Assembly: GCA_963770745.1 (NCBI GenBank)
Contig: CAVYRA010000001.1
Coordinates: 123,020 to 187,019, forward strand
DNA length: 64,000 nucleotides
Source of the DNA: an uncultured Rikenellaceae bacterium
Lineage (GTDB): Bacteria; Bacteroidota; Bacteroidia; Bacteroidales; VadinHA17
Reading direction: 5' to 3'
Shown here: positions 10,521-63,356 of the stretch, piece by piece
Layout: the number at the start of each line of letters is the position of its first letter
How positions within the stretch are numbered: the stretch's first letter is position 1
The notes under the pieces: generated by a model
The model's input: the letters and a program-made list of their open reading frames with translations, nothing else
The model's database searches: none
What the model was told of the DNA's origin: nothing
Translations under genes and position numbers: made by a program

Positions 10521-11552
10521 ATGGCTGAAGAGGAACTGCCTGAATTGCAGGAGCAGGAGCTCTATGAGCACTATCGCTATGTGGTTGACCCAGGTCAGTC
10601 GTTGCTCCGCATAGACAAGTACCTTGCGGCACGCATTGAGAATGTGTCACGCACCCGCGTGCAGGCAGCCGCGCAGGCCGGAAACATACTTGTCAATGAG
10701 GCACCGGTAAAACCCAACTACCGTGTAAAGCCACTGGATGTTATTCAGATACTGCTTCCCAACCCCCCTCGTGAGATAGAACTCATACCGCAGGATATAC
10801 CGATAAGCATCATCTACGAAGACGATGACCTGATCGTCGTTGACAAGGCTGCCGGCATGGTGGTACATCCGGCATACGGCAATTACTCAGGTACACTGAT
10901 GAATGCGTTGATGTATCATTTCAGGGACCTCCCCCTCTTTCAGTCGGGCGAGGTGAGGCCGGGACTGGTGCACCGTATTGACAAGAACACCTCCGGGCTC
11001 CTTGTCGTAGCCAAGAACGAGTATGCCCACAACAGGCTCGCCAGGCAGTTCTTCAACCGCACCACTGGCCGTCGCTACCTGGCACTGGTGTGGGGCACAC
11101 CTGACCCCGATGAAGGAACAGTAACAGGTCATGTGGGACGCAACCTGCGCGACCGGAAGATCATGCAGGTCTTCGCTGACGGCAGCCAGGGAAAGCATGC
11201 GGTGACGCACTATAAGGTCATTGAGCAGCTCGGGTATGTGTCGCTCATCGAGTGCCGTCTCGAGACGGGGCGCACTCACCAGATAAGGGTCCACATGGCA
11301 TGGTTCGGTCATCCGCTCTTCAATGACGAGGAGTATGGCGGTCAACGTATCCTTAAGGGCACCACCTTCACCAAATACCTGCAGTTCGTACGCAACTGCT
11401 TCGCCCTCATCCCGCGCCAGGCACTGCATGCACAGACCCTGGCCTTTGATCACCCGGTCACCGGCAAGCGGCTCTCCTTCGAATCACCCCTACCGCCCGA
11501 TATGGAAGCGGTTCTGGCTAAGTGGAGGGGTTATACGGCTGGCAGAGACTGA
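10521..11552 (+). CDS. RluA-family pseudouridine synthase with S4 domain (RluD-like)
   Basis: RIDKYL S4 domain, VHRIDKNTSGL, LETGRTHQIRVH and RQALHA motifs. Confidence 0.93.
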   Translation: MAEEELPELQEQELYEHYRYVVDPGQSLLRIDKYLAARIENVSRTRVQAAAQAGNILVNEAPVKPNYRVKPLDVIQILLPNPPREIELIPQDIPISIIYEDDDLIVVDKAAGMVVHPAYGNYSGTLMNALMYHFRDLPLFQSGEVRPGLVHRIDKNTSGLLVVAKNEYAHNRLARQFFNRTTGRRYLALVWGTPDPDEGTVTGHVGRNLRDRKIMQVFADGSQGKHAVTHYKVIEQLGYVSLIECRLETGRTHQIRVHMAWFGHPLFNDEEYGGQRILKGTTFTKYLQFVRNCFALIPRQALHAQTLAFDHPVTGKRLSFESPLPPDMEAVLAKWRGYTAGRD

Positions 11553-11553
11553 G

Positions 11554-11611
11554 GAATTTGCGATTGTCGATTGTCGATTGTCGATTTAATCAAATTTGCG
11601 ATTTGTGATTT
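11554..11611 (+). repeat. Left arm of CGATTnn heptamer inverted repeat flanking the four-helix-bundle gene
   Basis: gaatttg cgattgt cgattgt cgattgt cgatt (11554-11586), then taatc and further degenerate units (aaatttg cgatttg tgattt). Confidence 0.9.
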
Positions 11612-11658
11612 AATTAGAAATGTTCTCATTTTCCATATTATAGTAAAGTGGAATAATT

Positions 11659-12021
11659 GTGGAAATGAAAGAGCAAATCCAATTGCGGTCGAAGAAATTG
11701 GCTATTGGAATCGTAAGGTTGTGCGGTATGCTGCCAAAAACTGAGTCCAACAAGATAATAAGCCGTCAGCTAATAAGGGCATCCTGCTCTGTGGGGGCTA
11801 ACTATCGTGCGGTGTGCAGGGCAAAATCACCTGCTGATTTTATCAATAAACTTAGTATAGTTGAAGAAGAAGCCGATGAGAGTATTTTCTGGCTTGAGCT
11901 TCTCGGGGAACTTGAAACCCGATTTTTGGACACTATCTCAGTTTGTATCCGGGAAATGACAGAAATTCTCTCCATAATCGTGGCAGCCAGGAAAACTTCA
12001 AAACAGAGGTTTCAGTCCTAA
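11659..12021 (+). CDS. Four helix bundle protein (23S rRNA intervening-sequence protein / TIGR02436-like)
   Basis: 120 aa with QLIRASCSVGANYRAVCRAKSPADFINKLSIVEEEADESIFWLELL signature. Visibly more AT-rich than neighbouring genes. Start GTG 11659 or ATG 11665. Confidence 0.92.
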   Translation: MEMKEQIQLRSKKLAIGIVRLCGMLPKTESNKIISRQLIRASCSVGANYRAVCRAKSPADFINKLSIVEEEADESIFWLELLGELETRFLDTISVCIREMTEILSIIVAARKTSKQRFQS

Positions 12022-12052
12022 TCGACAATCGCAAATCGGCAATCGACAATTC
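12020..12052 (-). repeat. Right arm of CGATTnn heptamer inverted repeat
   Basis: aatcgac aatcgca aatcggc aatcgac aattc, an imperfect reverse complement of 11554-11586. Confidence 0.9.
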
Positions 12053-12858
12053 TACCAGCTTCCGCCTGCCCCGCCACCGCCGAACCCGCCGCCGCCAAAG
12101 CCGCCGAACCCGCCGCCGCCACTGCTGCCACCGCCGGAGAATCCTCCCCAGCTGCCGCCATGCGACCGCCCGCCACCCATCATGCTTAGAAGAAGCCATA
12201 GAGGCAGGTTGCCTGAACCGCTCTTCTTCAGATGCTTGTTGTTTGAACTGCCGGAAGAGACAATCACGATAAATATGATAAGAATAATGAAGAAAATTAT
12301 GCCGGGCACTGCTGGTGACGGTGACCCTCCTGCATAACTCTGATAGGAATACTCTCCGGCAGCAAGGGACATCAGCACATTTGTGCCGGCATCAAGCCCT
12401 CCGTAATAATCGTTCTCGCGAAACCGCGGCAGTATCTCCCTGTCAATGATATCGGCGGCTGCAATGTCAGGAATGGCCCCTTCAAGGCCGTAGCCCGTGG
12501 CAATGAAGATTTGTCCCGTGGACCTCTCTGATTTGGTTTTGACAAGTATGAGCAACCCGTTGTTGAAGTCGCCCTGTCCTACTCCCCAATCCTTCGCCAC
12601 CCTGTATGCAAAATCTGACCGGTCATACCCCTGAAGATCATTTACAACCACCACGGCAATCTGGTTCGATGTCGAATCATTGAATGCAACCAGCTTATTC
12701 TCCAATGCCTGTGTTTCGGAGGCAGAGAGGACGCCTGCAAAGTCGTTCACCAGGCGCGGGGGGTCAGGCCTGGCAAGGAGAGTCTGAGCCTCAAGACTGA
12801 GTGAGAAGCCAAGGAGCACTGTCAGGCATAAAACAGAACTCAGCTTATTCATTTTCAT
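12052..12858 (-). CDS. TPM domain-containing protein (YgcG-like) with Gly-rich tail
   Basis: VNDFAGVLS, QIAVVVV, WGVG and IATGYGLEGAIPD motifs, ending FGGGGFGGGGAGGSW. Confidence 0.9.
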   Translation of the reverse strand: MKMNKLSSVLCLTVLLGFSLSLEAQTLLARPDPPRLVNDFAGVLSASETQALENKLVAFNDSTSNQIAVVVVNDLQGYDRSDFAYRVAKDWGVGQGDFNNGLLILVKTKSERSTGQIFIATGYGLEGAIPDIAAADIIDREILPRFRENDYYGGLDAGTNVLMSLAAGEYSYQSYAGGSPSPAVPGIIFFIILIIFIVIVSSGSSNNKHLKKSGSGNLPLWLLLSMMGGGRSHGGSWGGFSGGGSSGGGGFGGFGGGGFGGGGAGGSW

Positions 12859-15061: not shown

Positions 15062-15136
15062 ACAATACTTGATGGCCTACAGCCAAAAATTGCATTTTAA
15101 TCCCTTGTTCTACAATACTTTATGACCTACGGTCAA
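15062..15136 (-). repeat. Two REP-like GTA-loop hairpin units at 50-nt spacing
   Basis: Minus strand reads TGACC-GTA-GGTCA TAAAGTATTGTAGAACA, then a spacer, then TGGCT-GTA-GGCCA TCAAGTATTGT. Confidence 0.75.
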
Positions 15137-15143
15137 CTCCTCA

Positions 15144-15310
15144 CTATTGCCTACTGCCTATTGCCTACTGCCTCAAATGACTGATGACTGCTGACTGAAG
15201 ACTGAACTTCACTATTGCCTATTGCCTACTGCCTATTGCCTGAATTGACTGCCGGCTGAGGACTGAAGACTGCCGACTGGCCTATTGCCTACTGCCTATT
15301 GCCTACTACC
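15144..15310 (-). repeat. Composite heptamer tandem-repeat array (TAGGCA[A/G] blocks alternating with GACTGnn blocks)
   Basis: Plus strand shows (ctattgc/ctactgc)n x3 separated by tgactga/tgactgc/agactga and gactgcc/gactgaa runs. Confidence 0.9.
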
Positions 15311-17535
15311 TCTTTAGCCTCCACCAGCCGGGTAATAAATGCCGTTACCTCAGGTTGTTTTGAGAAATTGTATTTCGCACGCGTGGGACCCTTACCCACC
15401 TTGAGGGAGATGGCATTGTCAGGCAACGCCCCGAAAAGCTCCTCATCGGTCTTGTCATCACCGATGGCAAGAATGAAATCATTCTTCCCAGATGCGGTCA
15501 GTTTCTTTGCTGCAGTACCCTTGTTATACCCTGACATCTTCACCTCAACCACCTTATGTCCGTCAATGACTTGCAGCGGCATGTTAGTTATTGATTCCTC
15601 AAGTTCATTTTTCAGTTCTATAGCCCTGAGGGCTGCAAGATCCGGATCAGCATTGCGGTAATGCCATGAGAGGGAAGCCCTCTTCTGCTCCACGAAGGAG
15701 CCCTTGCATCTGTTGGTGAACCTGTTGAGAAGGGGAAGGATCCTCTCTTTCCATGAATCATCCTGTTCAAGAGACGACTCCCACTCCCCATCGGGATACC
15801 GGATGAAGGCCCCGTGCTCCGCCACAAGTGTCAGGTTAAGGTTGGAAAACCATTTATCGAGGAAATCCCTGTTACGGCCGCTAATGATTACAACATCAGT
15901 CACCGCTGCCAGCCTTTCGGTAAGCACTATCAGCTTCATTTCAGGTATGGCCATCTCGGGCAACTCTCTAATCGGCACAAGCGTGCCGTCATAATCAAGG
16001 AAGAGTAACGGGGCGCGCGCCTTGCAGAATGATTCTATGATCCCGTTTTCGATATCACGGTTGATAAGCCTGACCCTGAAACTCTGCCTGTCAGCCTTTA
16101 CCTTAACGGTTGTCCTGAGGATGTCATCGGCCCATGAGAATACATCATAATCGCGAAGCCTTCTTTTCATAGTTTCAATGCGCTCTCCCTTTTCTTCCTC
16201 ACTCATGGTCAGAGCCTGGTATATTGCATCTGCCACCTGCGAAATATCCGACGGGTTGACCAGTATCGATTCGCTCATCTCCGCAGCTGCTCCTGCCAGC
16301 TCGCTGAGTATGAGCATACCGTAATGCTGGTGCTGTGCTGCAACATACTCCTTGGCCACCAGGTTCATCCCGTCACGGAGTGGTGTCAGCAGTCCGACGT
16401 CGCTGTGCGAGTATAGGGCGACCAGCTCATTAAATCTCAATGACTTGTACTGATATATAATTGGATTCCAGTCCAGGGTGCCGTATTTGCCGTTTATGCG
16501 TCCTACCGTGGCCTCAATCTCCTTCTTCATCTCCTGGTAGCGGACAATGGTATCACGTGAGGGAACCATCACCATGTTGAATATCACCCTTCCCCTCATG
16601 TTACTGTAACGCTCAAGGAAAAGCTCAAAGGCAGCCAGCCTGTTGAGGAATCCCTTGGTGTAATCAAGCCTGTCAACTGAGAAGATTAGCAGGCGGTCAC
16701 GCTTTTGCTTGCGTATCCGCGAAATGAATTTTTCCGTCTCAGGCAGCAGGACGGCATCATTGAATTTTTTATAATCAATGCTTATCGGAAATGCATCAGC
16801 CCGTGAGTATATCTCGTCTGACATAACGGTATTGAGCGAAATGTCATAGCCGAGAGACCTTCTTACCGATTTCAGGAAGTGCTGTGCATAGTCATGAGTA
16901 TGAAAACCTATCAGATCAGCCCCTAAAAGTCCCTTCAATATTGCTGCCTGGTAGCCGTCCGGCATAATTCGGAATACCTCATATGACGGGAAAGGAATAT
17001 GCAGAAAGAAGGCTATCGACGCCTCAGGGAACTCCTCCCTGACCATTCCCGGCATCAGGAACAGCTGATAATCATGTATCCAGATAAAATCGCCCGGTCT
17101 GATTATCTTCTTCAGCTCCCTTAAAAAGAGCTGGTTTGCCTTACGATAGTTTTCGAAATAACCCTGTCCGAAAACCGCCATGGAAGGGAAATAATGAAAC
17201 AAGGGCCAGATGAGGTCATTGCAGAAACCGCCGTAGAACTTCTCATTGACACTGTCAGGTATCTTTACCGGCACAAGTTCGAAAGTCTCCTTCACCTCAT
17301 CAAGTGAGTTCATCTTTTCGGCAGCGTGTTCACCTTTGCCTACCCAAACGGTCTTATCCATTACGGAGGCGCTATCAGTGTTTCTCATCCTGTCGGTCAG
17401 TGAGAGCACTGCAGAGACCAGCCCTCCGGTGTTCTGAACTGCCGTGAGGTTACCGTTTCGCTCTTTAAGGGTGAACGGGAGCCTGTAGGCAACGATTACT
17501 ATTCTCTTGAATTCCGGTAGTCTGCTGTTTTCCAT
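15289..17535 (-). CDS. Bifunctional trehalose-6-phosphate synthase/phosphatase (OtsA-OtsB fusion)
   Basis: GT20 motifs (WIHDYQL, FFLHIPFP, VDRLDYTKG, PLRDGMNLVAKEY) plus HAD motifs (FLDYDGTL, IGDDKTDE). Start reassigned to MENSRLPEF. Confidence 0.95.
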   Translation of the reverse strand: MENSRLPEFKRIVIVAYRLPFTLKERNGNLTAVQNTGGLVSAVLSLTDRMRNTDSASVMDKTVWVGKGEHAAEKMNSLDEVKETFELVPVKIPDSVNEKFYGGFCNDLIWPLFHYFPSMAVFGQGYFENYRKANQLFLRELKKIIRPGDFIWIHDYQLFLMPGMVREEFPEASIAFFLHIPFPSYEVFRIMPDGYQAAILKGLLGADLIGFHTHDYAQHFLKSVRRSLGYDISLNTVMSDEIYSRADAFPISIDYKKFNDAVLLPETEKFISRIRKQKRDRLLIFSVDRLDYTKGFLNRLAAFELFLERYSNMRGRVIFNMVMVPSRDTIVRYQEMKKEIEATVGRINGKYGTLDWNPIIYQYKSLRFNELVALYSHSDVGLLTPLRDGMNLVAKEYVAAQHQHYGMLILSELAGAAAEMSESILVNPSDISQVADAIYQALTMSEEEKGERIETMKRRLRDYDVFSWADDILRTTVKVKADRQSFRVRLINRDIENGIIESFCKARAPLLFLDYDGTLVPIRELPEMAIPEMKLIVLTERLAAVTDVVIISGRNRDFLDKWFSNLNLTLVAEHGAFIRYPDGEWESSLEQDDSWKERILPLLNRFTNRCKGSFVEQKRASLSWHYRNADPDLAALRAIELKNELEESITNMPLQVIDGHKVVEVKMSGYNKGTAAKKLTASGKNDFILAIGDDKTDEELFGALPDNAISLKVGKGPTRAKYNFSKQPEVTAFITRLVEAKEVVGNRQ

Positions 17536-28761: not shown

Positions 28762-31700
28762 TTAGAAATCAAGTCTGATATTGAATCCGTACGATCTAGT
28801 AGAAGGTATAGCGTTGTTCTCTGCGCCAACAGAAGTGTTACCGGCGCTGTTGCTAACCTCAGGATCAATATGAGGAATGTTCGAATGGATAAGCCACAGG
28901 TTGCGGCCCACCACTGACAGGTTCAGGTTCTTAACCCCGATCTTTCTCAGGAAGTCAACGTTATTGAATGAATAACCTGCAGAGACTTCACGAAGCTTTA
29001 CAAAGCTGCCGTCAAATGTATTCAACTCAGTCTTGGCATAATAATCATAACCCCATCTGTTTGCACTAACATAAGTTGTGTTTGCAACCGGAGCTGTAGC
29101 ATTCGAGCCGTCAGCGTTGATGAACTGTATTGTTCCGTCAGCGAGAACCTTACCGTAAACAGCGTCCTCAATGAGAACTCCGCCTCCGTCTGCAACTGCA
29201 TCCCTGATGTTCTTGCCATTGGCATTTGTAACTGCGGTTTCTTCAAGGATACCGGTATACATCCCGAACATGTGAGTGATCGAGTTGATCAGACCGCCTT
29301 TCCTGAAGTCAACAAGGAAGCTGAAGTTCAGGTTCTTATAGTTGAATGAGTTATTAACACCGCCGAACCAGTCAGGGTAAATGTTACCCAGGTCTGTTCT
29401 GGCACCGGAACGAATGTACCTGCCAGTGGTGGTAACAAGAGGTCTGCCTGAGTACATGTAGTGTGACAGCTGTGTCTCCTCTGCATCGTAATAGACAGGT
29501 GTTGCATTCTCACGCACTATGGCATAGCCCCAGAGTGTACCGTACTCCTGGCCGGGGATTGCATATACATATGCGCCCCAGCTGGCATCATACAGATAAA
29601 GGTATTTCATGTCACCGTACAGCTCAACAACCTTGTTTTCATTGGTTGACCAGTTGACGGTCACGTCCCATGAGAAGTTCGGAGTCTGGACCGGTGAAGC
29701 CATCAGTTGCAGCTCGATACCCTGGTTCTGCAGGTTACCGGCGTTGATAGTCTGAGAGCTGAAACCGGTTGTACGTGATACAGCGATGTTCATGATCTGG
29801 TTGATTGTATTCTCCCTGTAGACGGCTGCATCAAGAGACAGCCTGTTGTTGAAGAACCTAACCTCGAGACCTGCTTCCTTTGAACGCTTCCTCTGAGGTT
29901 TCAGTCCCAGCGGAGGAATAGTGCTTGTATAACCGAGTGACGGGTTGCCGTTGTAGGGATCGCCTGCGCCGTATACACCATTGAGTGAATAAGCACCTGC
30001 GGTACCACCCACTTCCGCATAACTGGCCCTCAGTTTAAGGAAGGATAGAACCTTGGAGTCAAACCCGAAGGCATCAGATATAACCCATGAGAGGGATGCT
30101 GACGGATAGAAATAGGAGTTATTATCAATAGGCAGGGTTGATGACCAGTCATTTCTTCCTGTGAGGTTGAGGAACAACCAGTTTCTGAACCCGAAGTTGG
30201 CCGTTCCGAATACACTCTGCAGCTCGGTGTGTGTCTCGCTGAGGCCTGTTGTGGCTGCAGCAGCAGCGTTGCTTACAGAATAGAGATCGGGAACAATCAG
30301 GTCAGGAACAGTGGTCCTGTGATACTGATAATCATATTTGTTGTATTCAGCACCGACGGCAGCGTCAAAAGCGATGTCACCGAAAGTCTTGACAAACTCA
30401 AGCCTGGCGTTGGCGTTAACCTCCTGCCTGCGGTTTGAATAAGCGTCAAAGCCACCTTCGGGGTCACCGGCACCGATATCTCCCTTGGCTGTTCTCTGCA
30501 TGATATCTTCAACAGACCAGTCTGAACCGGCCATGGCCCTGAAGGTCATCCAGTCAGTGAATTTCCATGCAAAGTTGATGTTGCCGATCATCCTGTCCCT
30601 GTTCCTTGAGTTGGTGCTCTTGTTAAGGGTCCAGTATGGGTTGTTGTGGTAGCTGTGGTTCCAGCTGAATGGCAGGCCGGTCTTCGGGTCTGTCTCATTC
30701 CACTTCTCCTTCAGCACCTCCATGTCAACCTGGCGTCCGAACCACTGCATCAGTGACTGCATCGGGTTCCCGGCGTTATAACCGTTCTCTGCGATGTTGT
30801 CACTTTTGTTGCTGATGTAGTTTGCCGAACCTCCTACAGTGATCTTGCTTGTAACAGCCAGTTCCCCGTTTAAGGCTATAGAGTTCTTTACAAGGTCCGT
30901 GTTGGGAAGGATACCCTTGATATCCTGGTTTGAGAGTGAAAGACGGAAGTTAGCGCCTTCCCTTGCACCTGCAATAGAAAGGTTTGTAGTCCGCTTGAGA
31001 CCTGTCTCAAAGAAATCCTTGATGTTGTTCGGGTGAGCTATCCAGGGCGTCGGGGTCCGGATATCAGTTTCAGGATCATACGGACTGTCAAACTGAGGAA
31101 TCAGTCTTCCGTCAAGCCGGGGTCCCCAGCTTTCATCAACACCGTCGTTGATACCACCGTAATTACCGTCTACATATTCAAATTCTCCGCCACCACCCTG
31201 TCCGTAAAGATTCTGGAACTTGGGAAGAACCAGCGGGTTTTCAAACATTACGTTCTCTTCAAAGGTTACACCAAGACCGGGCTGGCCTGTACGTGACTTA
31301 CCTGATTTGGTGGTGATAAGTACAACGCCGTTGACGGCTCTTGAACCGTACAGTGCGGCTGCACTTGCTCCCTTGAGTACGCTGATGTTCTCAACGTCTG
31401 AAGGGTTGATGTCACTTGACATGTTACCGTAGTCCATCCCGCCGTATGAGCCGGCATCCGAGGTGGAGTTACTGATAGGCACACCGTCAACAACGAACAG
31501 AGGCTGTGTGTTGCCGCTTGCTGAAAGCGAGTTCACACCCCTGATAAGGATCCTCACGCCCGATGCAACACCACCGTCGGTGTTGGAGATCTGAACGCCG
31601 GATAACTTACCCTGGAAAGCGTTAACAATGTTAGATACTTTTGCCTTTTCGATGCTTTCGCCGCCAAGGTCCTGGACTGCATATCCCAGCGCTTTCTTCT

Positions 31701-32046
31701 CGCGTGATATACCCAGGGCGGTTACAACAACTTCTTCAAGGCCAAGCATGTCAGTTACCATAACGACATTGATGGTAGAACGGCCACCGATTTCCTCGGT
31801 TACCGGTTTCATGCCGACAAAGGTAAAGAGAAGCTGAGAGGCGTTGGCTGGCGCTACAACGGTATAAGTACCGTCCGCACCAGTCAGGGTACCAACTGTG
31901 GTACCTCTTACTGTCACACCGGCACTCGGTATGGGCAAGCCATCGTCCGCTGACGTAACAGTACCTTTAATCGTCACCGTCTGTGCCATCAGGGCAGTAC
32001 AGCCCATGAACACAAACAGTGATAGCAACAGTTTGAGTCTGTTCAT
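28762..32046 (-). CDS. SusC/RagA family TonB-dependent outer membrane receptor
   Basis: EEVVVTALGISREKKALGYAVQ, QPLFVVDGVP, VLKGASAAALYGSRA and C-terminal YGFNIRLDF. Confidence 0.97.
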   Translation of the reverse strand: MNRLKLLLSLFVFMGCTALMAQTVTIKGTVTSADDGLPIPSAGVTVRGTTVGTLTGADGTYTVVAPANASQLLFTFVGMKPVTEEIGGRSTINVVMVTDMLGLEEVVVTALGISREKKALGYAVQDLGGESIEKAKVSNIVNAFQGKLSGVQISNTDGGVASGVRILIRGVNSLSASGNTQPLFVVDGVPISNSTSDAGSYGGMDYGNMSSDINPSDVENISVLKGASAAALYGSRAVNGVVLITTKSGKSRTGQPGLGVTFEENVMFENPLVLPKFQNLYGQGGGGEFEYVDGNYGGINDGVDESWGPRLDGRLIPQFDSPYDPETDIRTPTPWIAHPNNIKDFFETGLKRTTNLSIAGAREGANFRLSLSNQDIKGILPNTDLVKNSIALNGELAVTSKITVGGSANYISNKSDNIAENGYNAGNPMQSLMQWFGRQVDMEVLKEKWNETDPKTGLPFSWNHSYHNNPYWTLNKSTNSRNRDRMIGNINFAWKFTDWMTFRAMAGSDWSVEDIMQRTAKGDIGAGDPEGGFDAYSNRRQEVNANARLEFVKTFGDIAFDAAVGAEYNKYDYQYHRTTVPDLIVPDLYSVSNAAAAATTGLSETHTELQSVFGTANFGFRNWLFLNLTGRNDWSSTLPIDNNSYFYPSASLSWVISDAFGFDSKVLSFLKLRASYAEVGGTAGAYSLNGVYGAGDPYNGNPSLGYTSTIPPLGLKPQRKRSKEAGLEVRFFNNRLSLDAAVYRENTINQIMNIAVSRTTGFSSQTINAGNLQNQGIELQLMASPVQTPNFSWDVTVNWSTNENKVVELYGDMKYLYLYDASWGAYVYAIPGQEYGTLWGYAIVRENATPVYYDAEETQLSHYMYSGRPLVTTTGRYIRSGARTDLGNIYPDWFGGVNNSFNYKNLNFSFLVDFRKGGLINSITHMFGMYTGILEETAVTNANGKNIRDAVADGGGVLIEDAVYGKVLADGTIQFINADGSNATAPVANTTYVSANRWGYDYYAKTELNTFDGSFVKLREVSAGYSFNNVDFLRKIGVKNLNLSVVGRNLWLIHSNIPHIDPEVSNSAGNTSVGAENNAIPSTRSYGFNIRLDF

Positions 32047-34468: not shown

Positions 34469-35908
34469 ATGAACTACTTCTCACGTACAATAAAGAAATT
34501 CCCCAGTCTCTTCTGGATCTCCAACCTCATTGAACTTTTTGAAAGATGGGGATGGTATGCCTTCTACAACGGTTTCTTTGCCATATACCTCACCTCGTCA
34601 CAGGAGTCGGGCGCGCTGGGCTTCTCAAACGTTGAGAAGGGAACCATCATGGGAACCGGATCCATGATCCTCTACCTCCTGCCGGTGATAACAGGCGCCA
34701 TCGCTGACAGGGTGGGATACAAAAAAGTGCTCATCGTCGCTTTCCTGACTTATATTCTCTCTTTCCTCATGCTGAGCAGGTTCGAGACCTTTGGCTCCAT
34801 CTTCGCCGCTTTCATCCTCCTTGCCGTTGCGGGAGCCCTCTTCAAGCCAATCATCTCAGGCACGGTAGCCAGGGTGACCAACAGGGAGACTGCCTCCCTC
34901 GGGTTCGGTATATTTTATATGGTGGTTAACATAGGCGGATTCATTGGCCCTTTTGTTGCCAGCCTGATGTACAAGAACAACTGGGACATGGTTTTCTATA
35001 TGTCGATGGCGGCAATGGCCCTGAACCTCATTCTTGTCATCACCCTTTACAAGGAACCGGCGGTGACAGGGACCGGGAATACATTCCTGCAGAATATCGC
35101 GATAGCATTCAAAAACATCGGGGTAACACTCACCGACTGGAGGTACGTTCTGTTCCTATTAATAATAGGTGTATTCTGGACCGCCTACAACCAGCTCTAT
35201 TATTCGTTCCCGGTATTCCTTGAGACATGGGTGAACCTCGATAAGATGTCAATGACTCTGGGTCTTGATCCGGGCACCATCACAACGGTGACAATTTCAA
35301 GCCTGGCATCGTTCTTCATAATCCTCTTCCAGCTGGTTATCTCCTCTGTCACTGCCAGGGTAAGACCCCTGAATTCCATCATGACCGGGATCTTTATCCT
35401 GGCATTCGGCCTGGGTATGATGTTCGCAAACCTTAACCCATGGATCATTGTGCTTGGGGTGCTGATCTTCGCTATCGGTGAGATGGCCTCATCTCCCAAG
35501 GTGCAGGAGTACCTCGGCGGCATTGCCCCCGCAGACCGCAAGGCACTATATATGGGAACCGCCTTCCTTCCAATCGCCCTGGGTCATCTCGGAGCCGGAT
35601 GGATATCGGGTAAGCCGTACGAGATGATGGCAGATAAAGTATTCCTGCTGAAAAAGGCGGTGACTGAAAAGGGATTTGACATTCCCGATATATCAGCCAC
35701 CTTCACGCAGACCGACTATGTCACCAGGGCACAGGAGCTGTTCGGTATGGATGCTCAGCAACTGACCCGATACCTGTGGGAGACCTATAACCCTTCAAAG
35801 GTGTGGATACTCTTTACAGCTATAGCCATTGCCGCCAGCATTATGCTCTTCCTGTATGACAGGTTCATTTTGCATGGCGGGGAAGTGAATGGACATGGCA
35901 GGCAATAG
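34469..35908 (+). CDS. MFS transporter, POT/peptide-transporter-like
   Basis: ELFERWGWY (ExxER motif), GAIADRVG and FYMVVNIGG, with about 12 TMs. Confidence 0.88.
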   Translation: MNYFSRTIKKFPSLFWISNLIELFERWGWYAFYNGFFAIYLTSSQESGALGFSNVEKGTIMGTGSMILYLLPVITGAIADRVGYKKVLIVAFLTYILSFLMLSRFETFGSIFAAFILLAVAGALFKPIISGTVARVTNRETASLGFGIFYMVVNIGGFIGPFVASLMYKNNWDMVFYMSMAAMALNLILVITLYKEPAVTGTGNTFLQNIAIAFKNIGVTLTDWRYVLFLLIIGVFWTAYNQLYYSFPVFLETWVNLDKMSMTLGLDPGTITTVTISSLASFFIILFQLVISSVTARVRPLNSIMTGIFILAFGLGMMFANLNPWIIVLGVLIFAIGEMASSPKVQEYLGGIAPADRKALYMGTAFLPIALGHLGAGWISGKPYEMMADKVFLLKKAVTEKGFDIPDISATFTQTDYVTRAQELFGMDAQQLTRYLWETYNPSKVWILFTAIAIAASIMLFLYDRFILHGGEVNGHGRQ

Positions 35909-35961
35909 GCAGTAGGCAATAGGTCCGATCAGGCAATAGGCAGTAGGCAATAGGCAATAGT
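35901..35961 (+). repeat. TAGGCA[A/G] heptamer array at the MFS gene 3' end
   Basis: ggcaataggcagtaggcaatagg-tccgatc-aggcaataggcagtaggcaataggcaatagt. It supplies the TAG stop. Confidence 0.88.
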
Positions 35962-50325: not shown

Positions 50326-50356
50326 AGGCAATAGGCAGTAGGCAATAGGCAATAGT
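50326..50356 (+). repeat. TAGGCA[A/G] heptamer array downstream of DUF1080 gene
   Basis: aggcaat aggcagt aggcaat aggcaat agt. Confidence 0.88.
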
Positions 50357-50357
50357 A

Positions 50358-50423
50358 GAATTTGCGATTTGCGATTTGCGAATTTTGATTAATCGACAAT
50401 CGAAAATCTGAAATCGAAAATTC
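50358..50423. repeat. 66-bp imperfect palindrome of CGATTnn heptamers (two 33-bp arms, no insert)
   Basis: gaatttg cgatttg cgatttg cgaattt tgatt | aatcgac aatcgaa aatctga aatcgaa aattc. Confidence 0.88.
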
Positions 50424-62598: not shown

Positions 62599-62657
62599 TA
62601 CAATACTTAATGGCCTACAGCCAACCCACTACTGCCTACTGCCTACTCCCTACTGCC
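62599..62657 (-). repeat. TAGGCAG heptamer array plus one GTA-loop REP-like unit upstream of the ara operon
   Basis: Minus strand: ggcagtagggagtaggcagtaggcagtagtggg-t-TGGCT-GTA-GGCCA-TTAAGTATTGTA. Confidence 0.8.
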
Positions 62658-62689
62658 TTTCTTATCAATATGCAAGTTATATAATTATT

Positions 62690-62897: not shown

Positions 62898-63356
62898 ATG
62901 AAAATGATTAAAAAAACAGTGCTTATAATGACGGTGACTCTGGTCGCTGCAATGCTTGTCTCAACTGGTGTCATAAATGCGCAGGAGGTAAAGGTTAAAC
63001 CTGATACGGCAACCGTGAGAGCTCAGGAGAGGGAGCAGCAAGCCCGGGAGCAGACGCAGAAACAGAACCAGGAGCAGGCTCAGAATCAGGGTCAGGCGCA
63101 AAATCAGACACAGGCTGAGAAACAGAACCAGGGTCAGGGTCAGTCTCAGGATCAGGGTCAGACGATGACAAACGCCGGGGCAAAAGCTCAGAAACAGGGT
63201 ACCAGTACAACCGGTGTCAAAAAGGTACAGAGTGCACGGCCTGACTGGAGTAAGGCGCGTGGCGCCCGTCCGCCATCTGTTGAACGGCCCTCGGGATCAA
63301 GGATACCCAAGGGCGCAGGTAAGCCGGGCGGCGCAAAGGGTCCGGGGAAAAGATAG
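62898..63356 (+). CDS. Secreted Gln-rich low-complexity hypothetical protein
   Basis: Signal peptide ending INAQ, QNQxQx repeats, and a basic Pro/Gly-rich C-terminus (GARPPSVERPSGSRIPKGAGKPGG). Confidence 0.75.
   Translation: MKMIKKTVLIMTVTLVAAMLVSTGVINAQEVKVKPDTATVRAQEREQQAREQTQKQNQEQAQNQGQAQNQTQAEKQNQGQGQSQDQGQTMTNAGAKAQKQGTSTTGVKKVQSARPDWSKARGARPPSVERPSGSRIPKGAGKPGGAKGPGKR

Follow-up and report, generated by a model that had tools for sequence, protein, structure and literature searches.

A gene for a small four-helix-bundle protein of the TIGR02436 family has a single home site in a genus of 65 genomes, the gap between the convergent genes for RluA and a TPM-domain protein, where it is present, absent, reversed or laterally replaced together with its heptamer arms, and the heptamer word of such arms goes together with the protein clade. 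We consider it somewhat probable that gene and repeats form a system comparable to RAYT and REPIN, in which a non-enzymatic pentamer would bind the arms, host machinery would move the DNA and gene-less units would be spread or kept.

The cassette between rluA and the TPM-domain gene

The locus was found in a window of 64,000 nucleotides, i.e., the whole stretch of DNA that was analysed. The convergent genes frame a gap of 499 bp with a heptamer array at each end, outside any rRNA gene, with the following features:

10521..11552, plus strand: rluA-family pseudouridine synthase gene, left host; its stop lies 1 base before the left arm
11554..11586, plus strand: outer left arm, four CGATTnn heptamers
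11587..11611, plus strand: inner left arm, TAATC and two more degenerate heptamers, common to the closest relatives
11612..11658, plus strand: AT-rich leader, travels with the gene in either orientation
11659..12021, plus strand: four-helix-bundle gene, 120 amino acids, TIGR02436 / PF05635, S23p/Avd-like fold
11673..11679, plus strand, second copy at 12031-12037: 7-bp microhomology, joined in a natural deletion allele
12020..12052, minus strand: right arm, inverted heptamer array, fused to the TAA stop of the gene and abutting the TPM stop
12052..12858, minus strand: TPM-domain gene, right host, convergent

The initial annotation had described a four-helix-bundle gene between two inverted arms, and both were confirmed: positions 11554-11586 and the reverse complement of 12020-12052 are identical at 28 of 33 positions, and the open reading frame 11659-12021 scored 75.4 bits against TIGR02436 (cut-off 24) and 46.7 against PF05635 (cut-off 33.8). 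The left arm runs further inward with two degenerate units at about 11594-11611. The 433-bp insert was also correctly described as richer in AT than its neighbours, with a GC content of 40.2 % (leader 22 %) versus 56.4 % for rluA and 54.5 % for the TPM gene. The long hairpin attributed to the arms agrees with their folding as RNA into an outer stem with a z-score of -3.98, a stability equalled by none of 100 shuffled sequences. A TAnnTTTn motif is located 28-44 bases before the start codon in 14 of 17 cassettes and is absent from the cassette of the window genome; read with the Bacteroidota promoter consensus, the leader may hold a promoter of its own for the gene. A sigma-70 scan, which does not suit this phylum, revealed no terminator-like site, and no recombinase gene adjoins the locus.

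The word TAATC at both inner boundaries (11587-11591 and 12019-12023) had been considered a possible duplication. The letters are present on both sides, but the right word is not an independent copy, because the right arm itself begins with four of its five letters; it is the stop codon fused to the first unit of the arm, a layout shared by several cassettes. Of 17 cassettes one, that of the window genome, carried TAATC at the upstream arm's inner end, which speaks against a duplication, while in G074 (G numbers denote genomes) the word occurs elsewhere in the leader. The left TAATC corresponds to the middle of a gene-less unit when that unit is read backwards, and a recent graft onto the left arm probably explains it better than a duplication does.

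The predicted structure of the 120-amino-acid protein consists of four helices (pLDDT 96.4). The structures 2RLD and 2GSC both match this fold with a TM score of 0.82, 2RLD with an E value of 5e-16 and five chains, and the match to the accessory protein Avd is weak (TM 0.65-0.67, E 0.07-0.24, 14-16 % identity). Judging from the five chains of 2RLD and from the Xanthomonas structure, as cited in PMC4990558, the product is presumably a homopentamer. The named relatives belong to the Bacteroidales. The window genome contains one intact gene of the family and, from another clade, one gene with an internal deletion; eight to eleven four-helix-bundle genes each were observed in G044, G069 and G043, several of them clustered within 20 kb in G044.

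Presence, orientation and exchange at the home site

All 65 genomes of the genus are metagenome assemblies, in which repeats may be collapsed or misjoined; the end of rluA was found in 59 of them and all 59 gaps were examined. Seventeen gaps carried the gene, nine in forward and eight in reversed orientation, counting one fragment at a contig end and two gaps containing Ns. The gene was absent from 42. CGATT-type remnants of 13-86 bp were present in 7 of the 59 gaps, in the remaining ones heptamer families of other types or short, unrelated spacers predominated, and one contig ends just past rluA. The alignment of this gap in relatives, proposed in the initial annotation, yielded presence and absence of the gene. 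A restored two-arm unit was not found in any gene-less rluA-TPM gap and the deletion allele described below joins at microhomology within the gene, so that an entry or exit at the centre of a ready-made palindrome is not supported.

Within the 65 genomes all 16 matches with at least 61 % identity were located in this gap, the next best matches having 38-39 %. Among the matches listed from two other collections, the genomes of which probably overlap, all eight loci with at least 66 % identity lay in the rluA-TPM gap and none of the 152 others did. The 16 near-complete cassette proteins form one clade (support 98/97) among 47 family proteins of the genus. Grouping of the reversed copies as one clade was rejected (p-AU 0.0004), and the orientation changed at least four times, both orientations being seen between species. 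Reversed copies may have arisen by inversion in place or by re-entry either way, two routes that cannot be told apart; a strand-changing joint was not detected in seven runs, all of them contigs of relatives and one an RNA run that left the gene uncovered, a search which cannot prove absence. Of the suggestion of a mobile cassette, the part concerning the site stands, with the gene present, absent, reversed and laterally replaced there, but the gene is not dispersing in the genus: all 16 genus matches with at least 61 % identity share this one position.

The gap is variable also between close relatives. In a relative with 22 differences over 936 rluA bases the stop codon is followed immediately by an AGGCA array (run X3, two contigs). 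The gene-less gaps of G001 (L017) and G020 (L021) are 480-520 bp long and contain heptamer arrays and several copies of a different palindromic repeat, the gap of G044 (L118) contains two mutually inverted copies of a different repeat, of CACAGAG type, and in G009 (L019) a one-unit arm remnant after rluA is followed by unrelated AT-rich DNA with an open reading frame on the opposite strand.

The gene tree is broadly congruent with the trees of rluA and TPM, with at least two clear lateral replacements. The cassettes of G022 and G068 group away from both of their own flanks, with AU p values from 1e-4 to 1e-66; the AU tests were run both ways, and the groups were picked after inspection of the trees but tested on the other partition. 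In G022, the host alleles end about 12 bases from the rluA stop and are found again from 33 bases into TPM, while in G056 and G078 about 70-80 TPM bases appear to be co-converted. The exchange thus ends at or near the arms. G017/G078 and G056 point in the same direction as G022 and G068, toward replacement. G050 was rejected as a lateral swap: it has only 24 conserved residues, and a similar full-length cassette is 72 % identical. The rluA tree of 56 rows was calculated without G010, G056 and G041, which have a short sequence; G050 was left out of the cassette trees, and G050 and G006 out of the dN/dS analysis. For G056 and G059 the rluA windows and the rluA dS values are void owing to a misplaced stop, and their left arms were read directly. 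The median dN/dS of 0.14 (17 usable of 105 pairs) indicates purifying selection on the gene.

Decay of the cassette was seen in public runs. A contig of run X1 joins codons 5-7 of the gene to the right arm via the 7-bp microhomology, with a loss of 358 bp, and the same deletion junction was present in run X2, from the same study, as a loose end beside an intact allele. The search for excision junctions recommended in the initial annotation gave three joints that mimic a precise excision (11579-12020, 11591-12020 and 11587-12021), but their sides of 22-26 bases, all under 30, fit other gene-less copies and they were discarded.

Gene-less hairpins, heptamer words and protein clades

In another convergent gap of the window the two-arm architecture occurs without the gene:

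50326..50355, plus strand: AGGCAAT heptamer array of a second family, adjoining the hairpin unit on its left
50358..50423: gene-less CGATT hairpin unit

This unit exists as first described and folds as a hairpin (z-scores -2.66 and -3.04), but it is not the empty partner of the cassette: the gene was present in none of 30 orthologous loci examined, out of 58 matching genomes and including 19 with the same left gene, and the unit belongs to a separate gene-less family of 20 copies. These 20 copies in the genome share an irregular right-arm variant that is absent from the arms of the gene, and owing to this common variant they are seen to have been copied from one another. Among the orthologous loci compared, a near letter-for-letter match of the unit was found in G046 alone. 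The arms are tandem non-palindromic heptamers. Since 77 CGATT-type arms at 54 loci were counted in the genome versus none in an equally long sequence simulated with a third-order Markov model, they are not due to chance. The gene-less unit resembles the upstream arm of the cassette joined to its stop-plus-downstream arm, which suggests that such units may have begun as deletion derivatives of a cassette of this kind.

Gene-less units are usually nested with other heptamer words (AGGCAnT, AAAGTCn, nnCAGTC). The arrays are placed directly behind stop codons in sense polarity, and 47 of 82 intergenic arrays were in convergent-stop gaps, which make up 312 of 1686 gaps according to crude ORF calls. 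At six further unit sites, compared in five close relatives, the unit was present at 9 of 28 orthologous positions, in four of the nine inverted; three orthologous positions were ambiguous, and others carry different heptamer families. No target duplication was seen by eye at the gene-less sites compared, and a gene-sized insert was lacking at the six other unit sites with both flanks found. Five left-right pairings of CGATT arms within 4 kb, taken as candidates for other cargo, proved to be arms of separate neighbouring units. Across the many gene-less units the gene was never found inside one, an absence for which arm homology alone does not account. Further arrays in the window are a mosaic of CTATTGC/CTACTGC and GACTGAn heptamers at 15136-15311, with a 68-bp higher-order repeat after a D-alanine ligase-like open reading frame, and more AGGCAAT / CTACTGC arrays of the second family at 35900-35960 and 62613-62658; a degenerate 6/12/18-bp repeat at 63049-63161 is probably low-complexity coding sequence.

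The expectation that family members elsewhere also have inverted heptamer arms was borne out in other clades of the genus and in distant relatives. Among the matches listed, GATTnnnGATT-type arms accompany 57 of 75 genome loci (39 with both arms) and 37 of 64 metagenome loci, versus 3 of 69 and 4 of 34 control positions, respectively; the genome loci are 80 minus three edge loci and two above 60 % identity, the metagenome loci 80 minus 16. This stricter type replaced an initial 'CGATT-like' pattern (63 of 77), which proved too permissive. The distant relatives with GATT-type arms have 44-57 % identity and an unchanged arm polarity, and they belong to Bacteroidota, Acidobacteriota, Verrucomicrobiota, Chloroflexota, Cyanobacteria, Planctomycetota and other phyla. 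In the genus the GATTnnnGATT type was present at 6 of 31 other family genes, three of the six representing the neighbouring clade; other clades have heptamer words of their own, among them AGGCA, CAGTC and AAGAATT, and some genes are without detectable arms.

Protein clade and repeat number are associated within the genus. Genomes with a gene of the CGATT clade (17) have a median of 53 CGAWT matches versus 10.5 in the 48 genomes without, while AGGCAR matches are unaffected (13 with, 16.5 without). The AGGCA-armed clade presents the mirror pattern, with medians of 78 versus 12.5 for AGGCAR and 11 versus 28.5 for CGAWT. Mann-Whitney tests on these array counts treat kin as independent; independent pairs on the rluA tree gave 6.2 to 0 for CGATT clade and CGAWT arrays (sign test about 0.03) and 2.5 to 0, not significant, for the AGGCA clade. 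The latter has one convergent home gap too, with 11 genes and a deleted copy in the window genome, which has 212 AGGCAR matches. All 11 genes have one and the same orientation, and because this clade keeps its orientation, flipping is not general. The internally deleted four-helix-bundle gene with AGGCA arms in this home gap is located at G000:C17 about 384440-384815 (L311).

The association has exceptions on both sides. Rich in CGAWT arrays without a gene of the CGATT clade are G005 (162), G070 (138), G046 (112), G071 (90) and G051 (79), all with a completeness of 93-98 %, and the diagnostic gene-less unit is most abundant in G046 (53), G070 (27, 15 of them exact) and G005 (25). The existence of such repeat-rich genomes means that the cognate gene is not continuously required. 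G068 possesses the gene and has only 6 CGAWT matches, and G023 has an AGGCA gene and two AGGCAR matches.

Known systems and competing explanations

The basic unit has been published once, inside rRNA: in Coxiella burnetii, the 23S rRNA intervening sequence (IVS) contains an S23p ORF, a stem of 28 bp and three or four heptamers (PMC4990558). The cassette shares with it the protein family, a unit of about 430-500 bp, terminal inverted repeats that pair over about 30 bp, tandem heptamers ahead of the ORF, indications of lateral acquisition and the decay of the ORF; unlike the IVS it is situated between two protein-coding genes that converge, is found in either orientation and is accompanied by dozens of gene-less counterparts in the genome. 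REPIN-RAYT systems are described as a single-copy gene in a fixed place with cognate inverted repeats (PMC3116915; 10.1101/2021.07.10.451892). The cassette has the single-copy gene, the fixed extragenic place and the many polymorphic hairpin units of about 70-100 bp in common with them. However, its gene codes for a four-helix bundle and RAYT is an HUH / Y1 tyrosine transposase, its arms are tandem heptamers where REPIN arms are short palindromes of about 14 bp, and the gene flips and is exchanged laterally, whereas RAYT genes are described as vertically inherited. In diversity-generating retroelements (DGR), Avd is a protein of related fold, the pentamer of which binds a nucleic-acid stem-loop, contacting the RNA with all five protomers (10.1101/2023.10.23.563531); unlike a DGR, the locus has no reverse transcriptase and no pair of template and variable repeats. 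From insertion sequences or MITEs with target duplication it differs by the lack of a duplication and by a gene-bearing element confined to one site in 65 genomes. The cassette misses one defining feature each of IVS, REPIN-RAYT, IS/MITE and DGR, and it works most like the first two.

Intergenic heptamers have been published without a cause. TAACTGA heptamers occur in Beggiatoaceae, Cyanobacteria and Bacteroidetes and their origin was called unexplained; the main text of that study contains no mention of four-helix-bundle genes (PMC4679880). The arrays described here resemble them in two to six tandem intergenic heptamers and a patchy spread across phyla, but TAACTGA repeats are mainly direct and precede start codons (PMC4679880), whereas most of the present arrays follow stops and are paired as hairpins. 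In the openly accessible main texts covered, no description joined the gene to heptamers beyond the Coxiella IVS. Direct tests at the present locus contributed the single home site, the measured flips, the flank-independent replacement, the deletion junction and the double dissociation of two clades. A very large protein family of unknown function is thereby linked to a specific DNA word and to the unexplained heptamers (PMC4679880), which opens a testable route to the 7-base repeats found in many bacteria, and one genus supplies several protein-heptamer pairs with built-in negative controls.

In the favoured RAYT/REPIN-like reading, the predicted pentamer likely recognizes its own heptamer arms as a hairpin in single-stranded DNA or RNA. 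Having no catalytic domain, it would mark the arms for host recombination or repair, and these host functions would carry out the exchange and inversion as well as the copying at the arms. Gene-less units would have arisen by deletion from a cassette and would now replicate non-autonomously, as REPINs do with RAYT, and the pentamer likely helps to spread or preserve such hairpins after stop codons. Lateral visits of the cassette could account for repeats in lineages now without the gene. If a non-enzyme indeed promotes exchange at the arms, the system would resemble REPINs but rest on a different chemistry, and would provide a small programmable tandem-repeat reader. A more far-reaching version, held tentatively and with less than even confidence, is that TIGR02436 proteins in general drive a transposase-less mobile DNA, each clade of the pentamer reading its own heptamer, homing its cassette into a single site through exchange at the arms and both seeding and rewriting gene-less hairpins throughout the genome, and that they may be the source of the heptamers of many phyla and of ORF-bearing rRNA IVSs.

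Several other explanations address the same observations. The protein may be a domesticated RNA regulator that binds hairpins at mRNA 3' ends, acting on termination, RNase III cleavage or stability; the arrays would serve as binding sites, multiplied through gene conversion and slippage and retained under host selection, the arms of the gene would be autoregulatory, and flips and losses would be side effects of inverted repeats. The position of arrays just after stops and in convergent gaps, the folding of the arms as RNA, the single-copy gene under purifying selection and the stem of the Coxiella IVS as an RNase III substrate (PMC4990558) are in line with this regulator, and it also predicts the correlation of gene and repeats. 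The content of the gaps, however, is swapped wholesale for other heptamer families in close relatives and the gene is absent from 42 of 59, a turnover that would be surprising for conserved regulatory sites; we regard the regulator as unlikely, though the most serious of the competitors. A passive passenger, i.e., a gene that merely lies in a repeat-rich gap while arrays evolve by slippage and conversion alone, would explain the repeat-rich genomes without gene, and inversion or deletion between short repeats needs no special protein. It leaves little room, however, for an arm word that goes with the protein clade at unrelated sites in many phyla, or for two clades that predict two different repeat families, and we rate it very improbable.

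Least probable of all is the proposal of the initial annotation, a cassette with a 5-bp duplication that enters and leaves ready-made palindromes at a TAATC centre. TAATC at both inner boundaries, the likeness of the gene-less unit to joined arms and the nesting of different families would fit, yet within the genus this model is largely refuted by the upstream inner TAATC in 1 of 17 cassettes, the lack of a second site of the clade in 65 genomes, the 0 of 30 filled 50358 loci, the six other unit sites without gene-sized insert and two joints which mimic precise excision with sides under 30 bases and fit gene-less copies. An Avd-like accessory role, with the pentamer handing heptamer-hairpin RNA or single-stranded DNA to a reverse transcriptase or transposase that is encoded elsewhere or visits on mobile DNA and copies the units, is judged quite unlikely, ranking between the regulator and the passive passenger. 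The likeness in fold to Avd, a protein that the DGR reverse transcriptase requires (10.1101/2023.10.23.563531), the units directly behind stops in sense polarity and an IS110 element inside an AGGCA array favour such a role. Against it, neither RVT_1 (PF00078) nor Y1_Tnp (PF01797) had a match in the window genome, which at 88 % completeness is not proof of absence, and a RAYT/IS200 enzyme or reverse transcriptase was rejected as mobilizer on these grounds. The gene-less sites compared by eye also lacked a target duplication.

The IS110 family targets palindromic repeats. It was dismissed as mobilizer as well, being present in 11 of 65 genomes; of the 11 inspected, none was situated directly within CGATT arms. 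The only IS110-family transposase of the genome (G000:C7 about 30380-31765, L398) is located in an AGGCA array directly after a stop codon; this element has short inverted ends, and the copies in G006 and G075 end near AGGCA arrays too.
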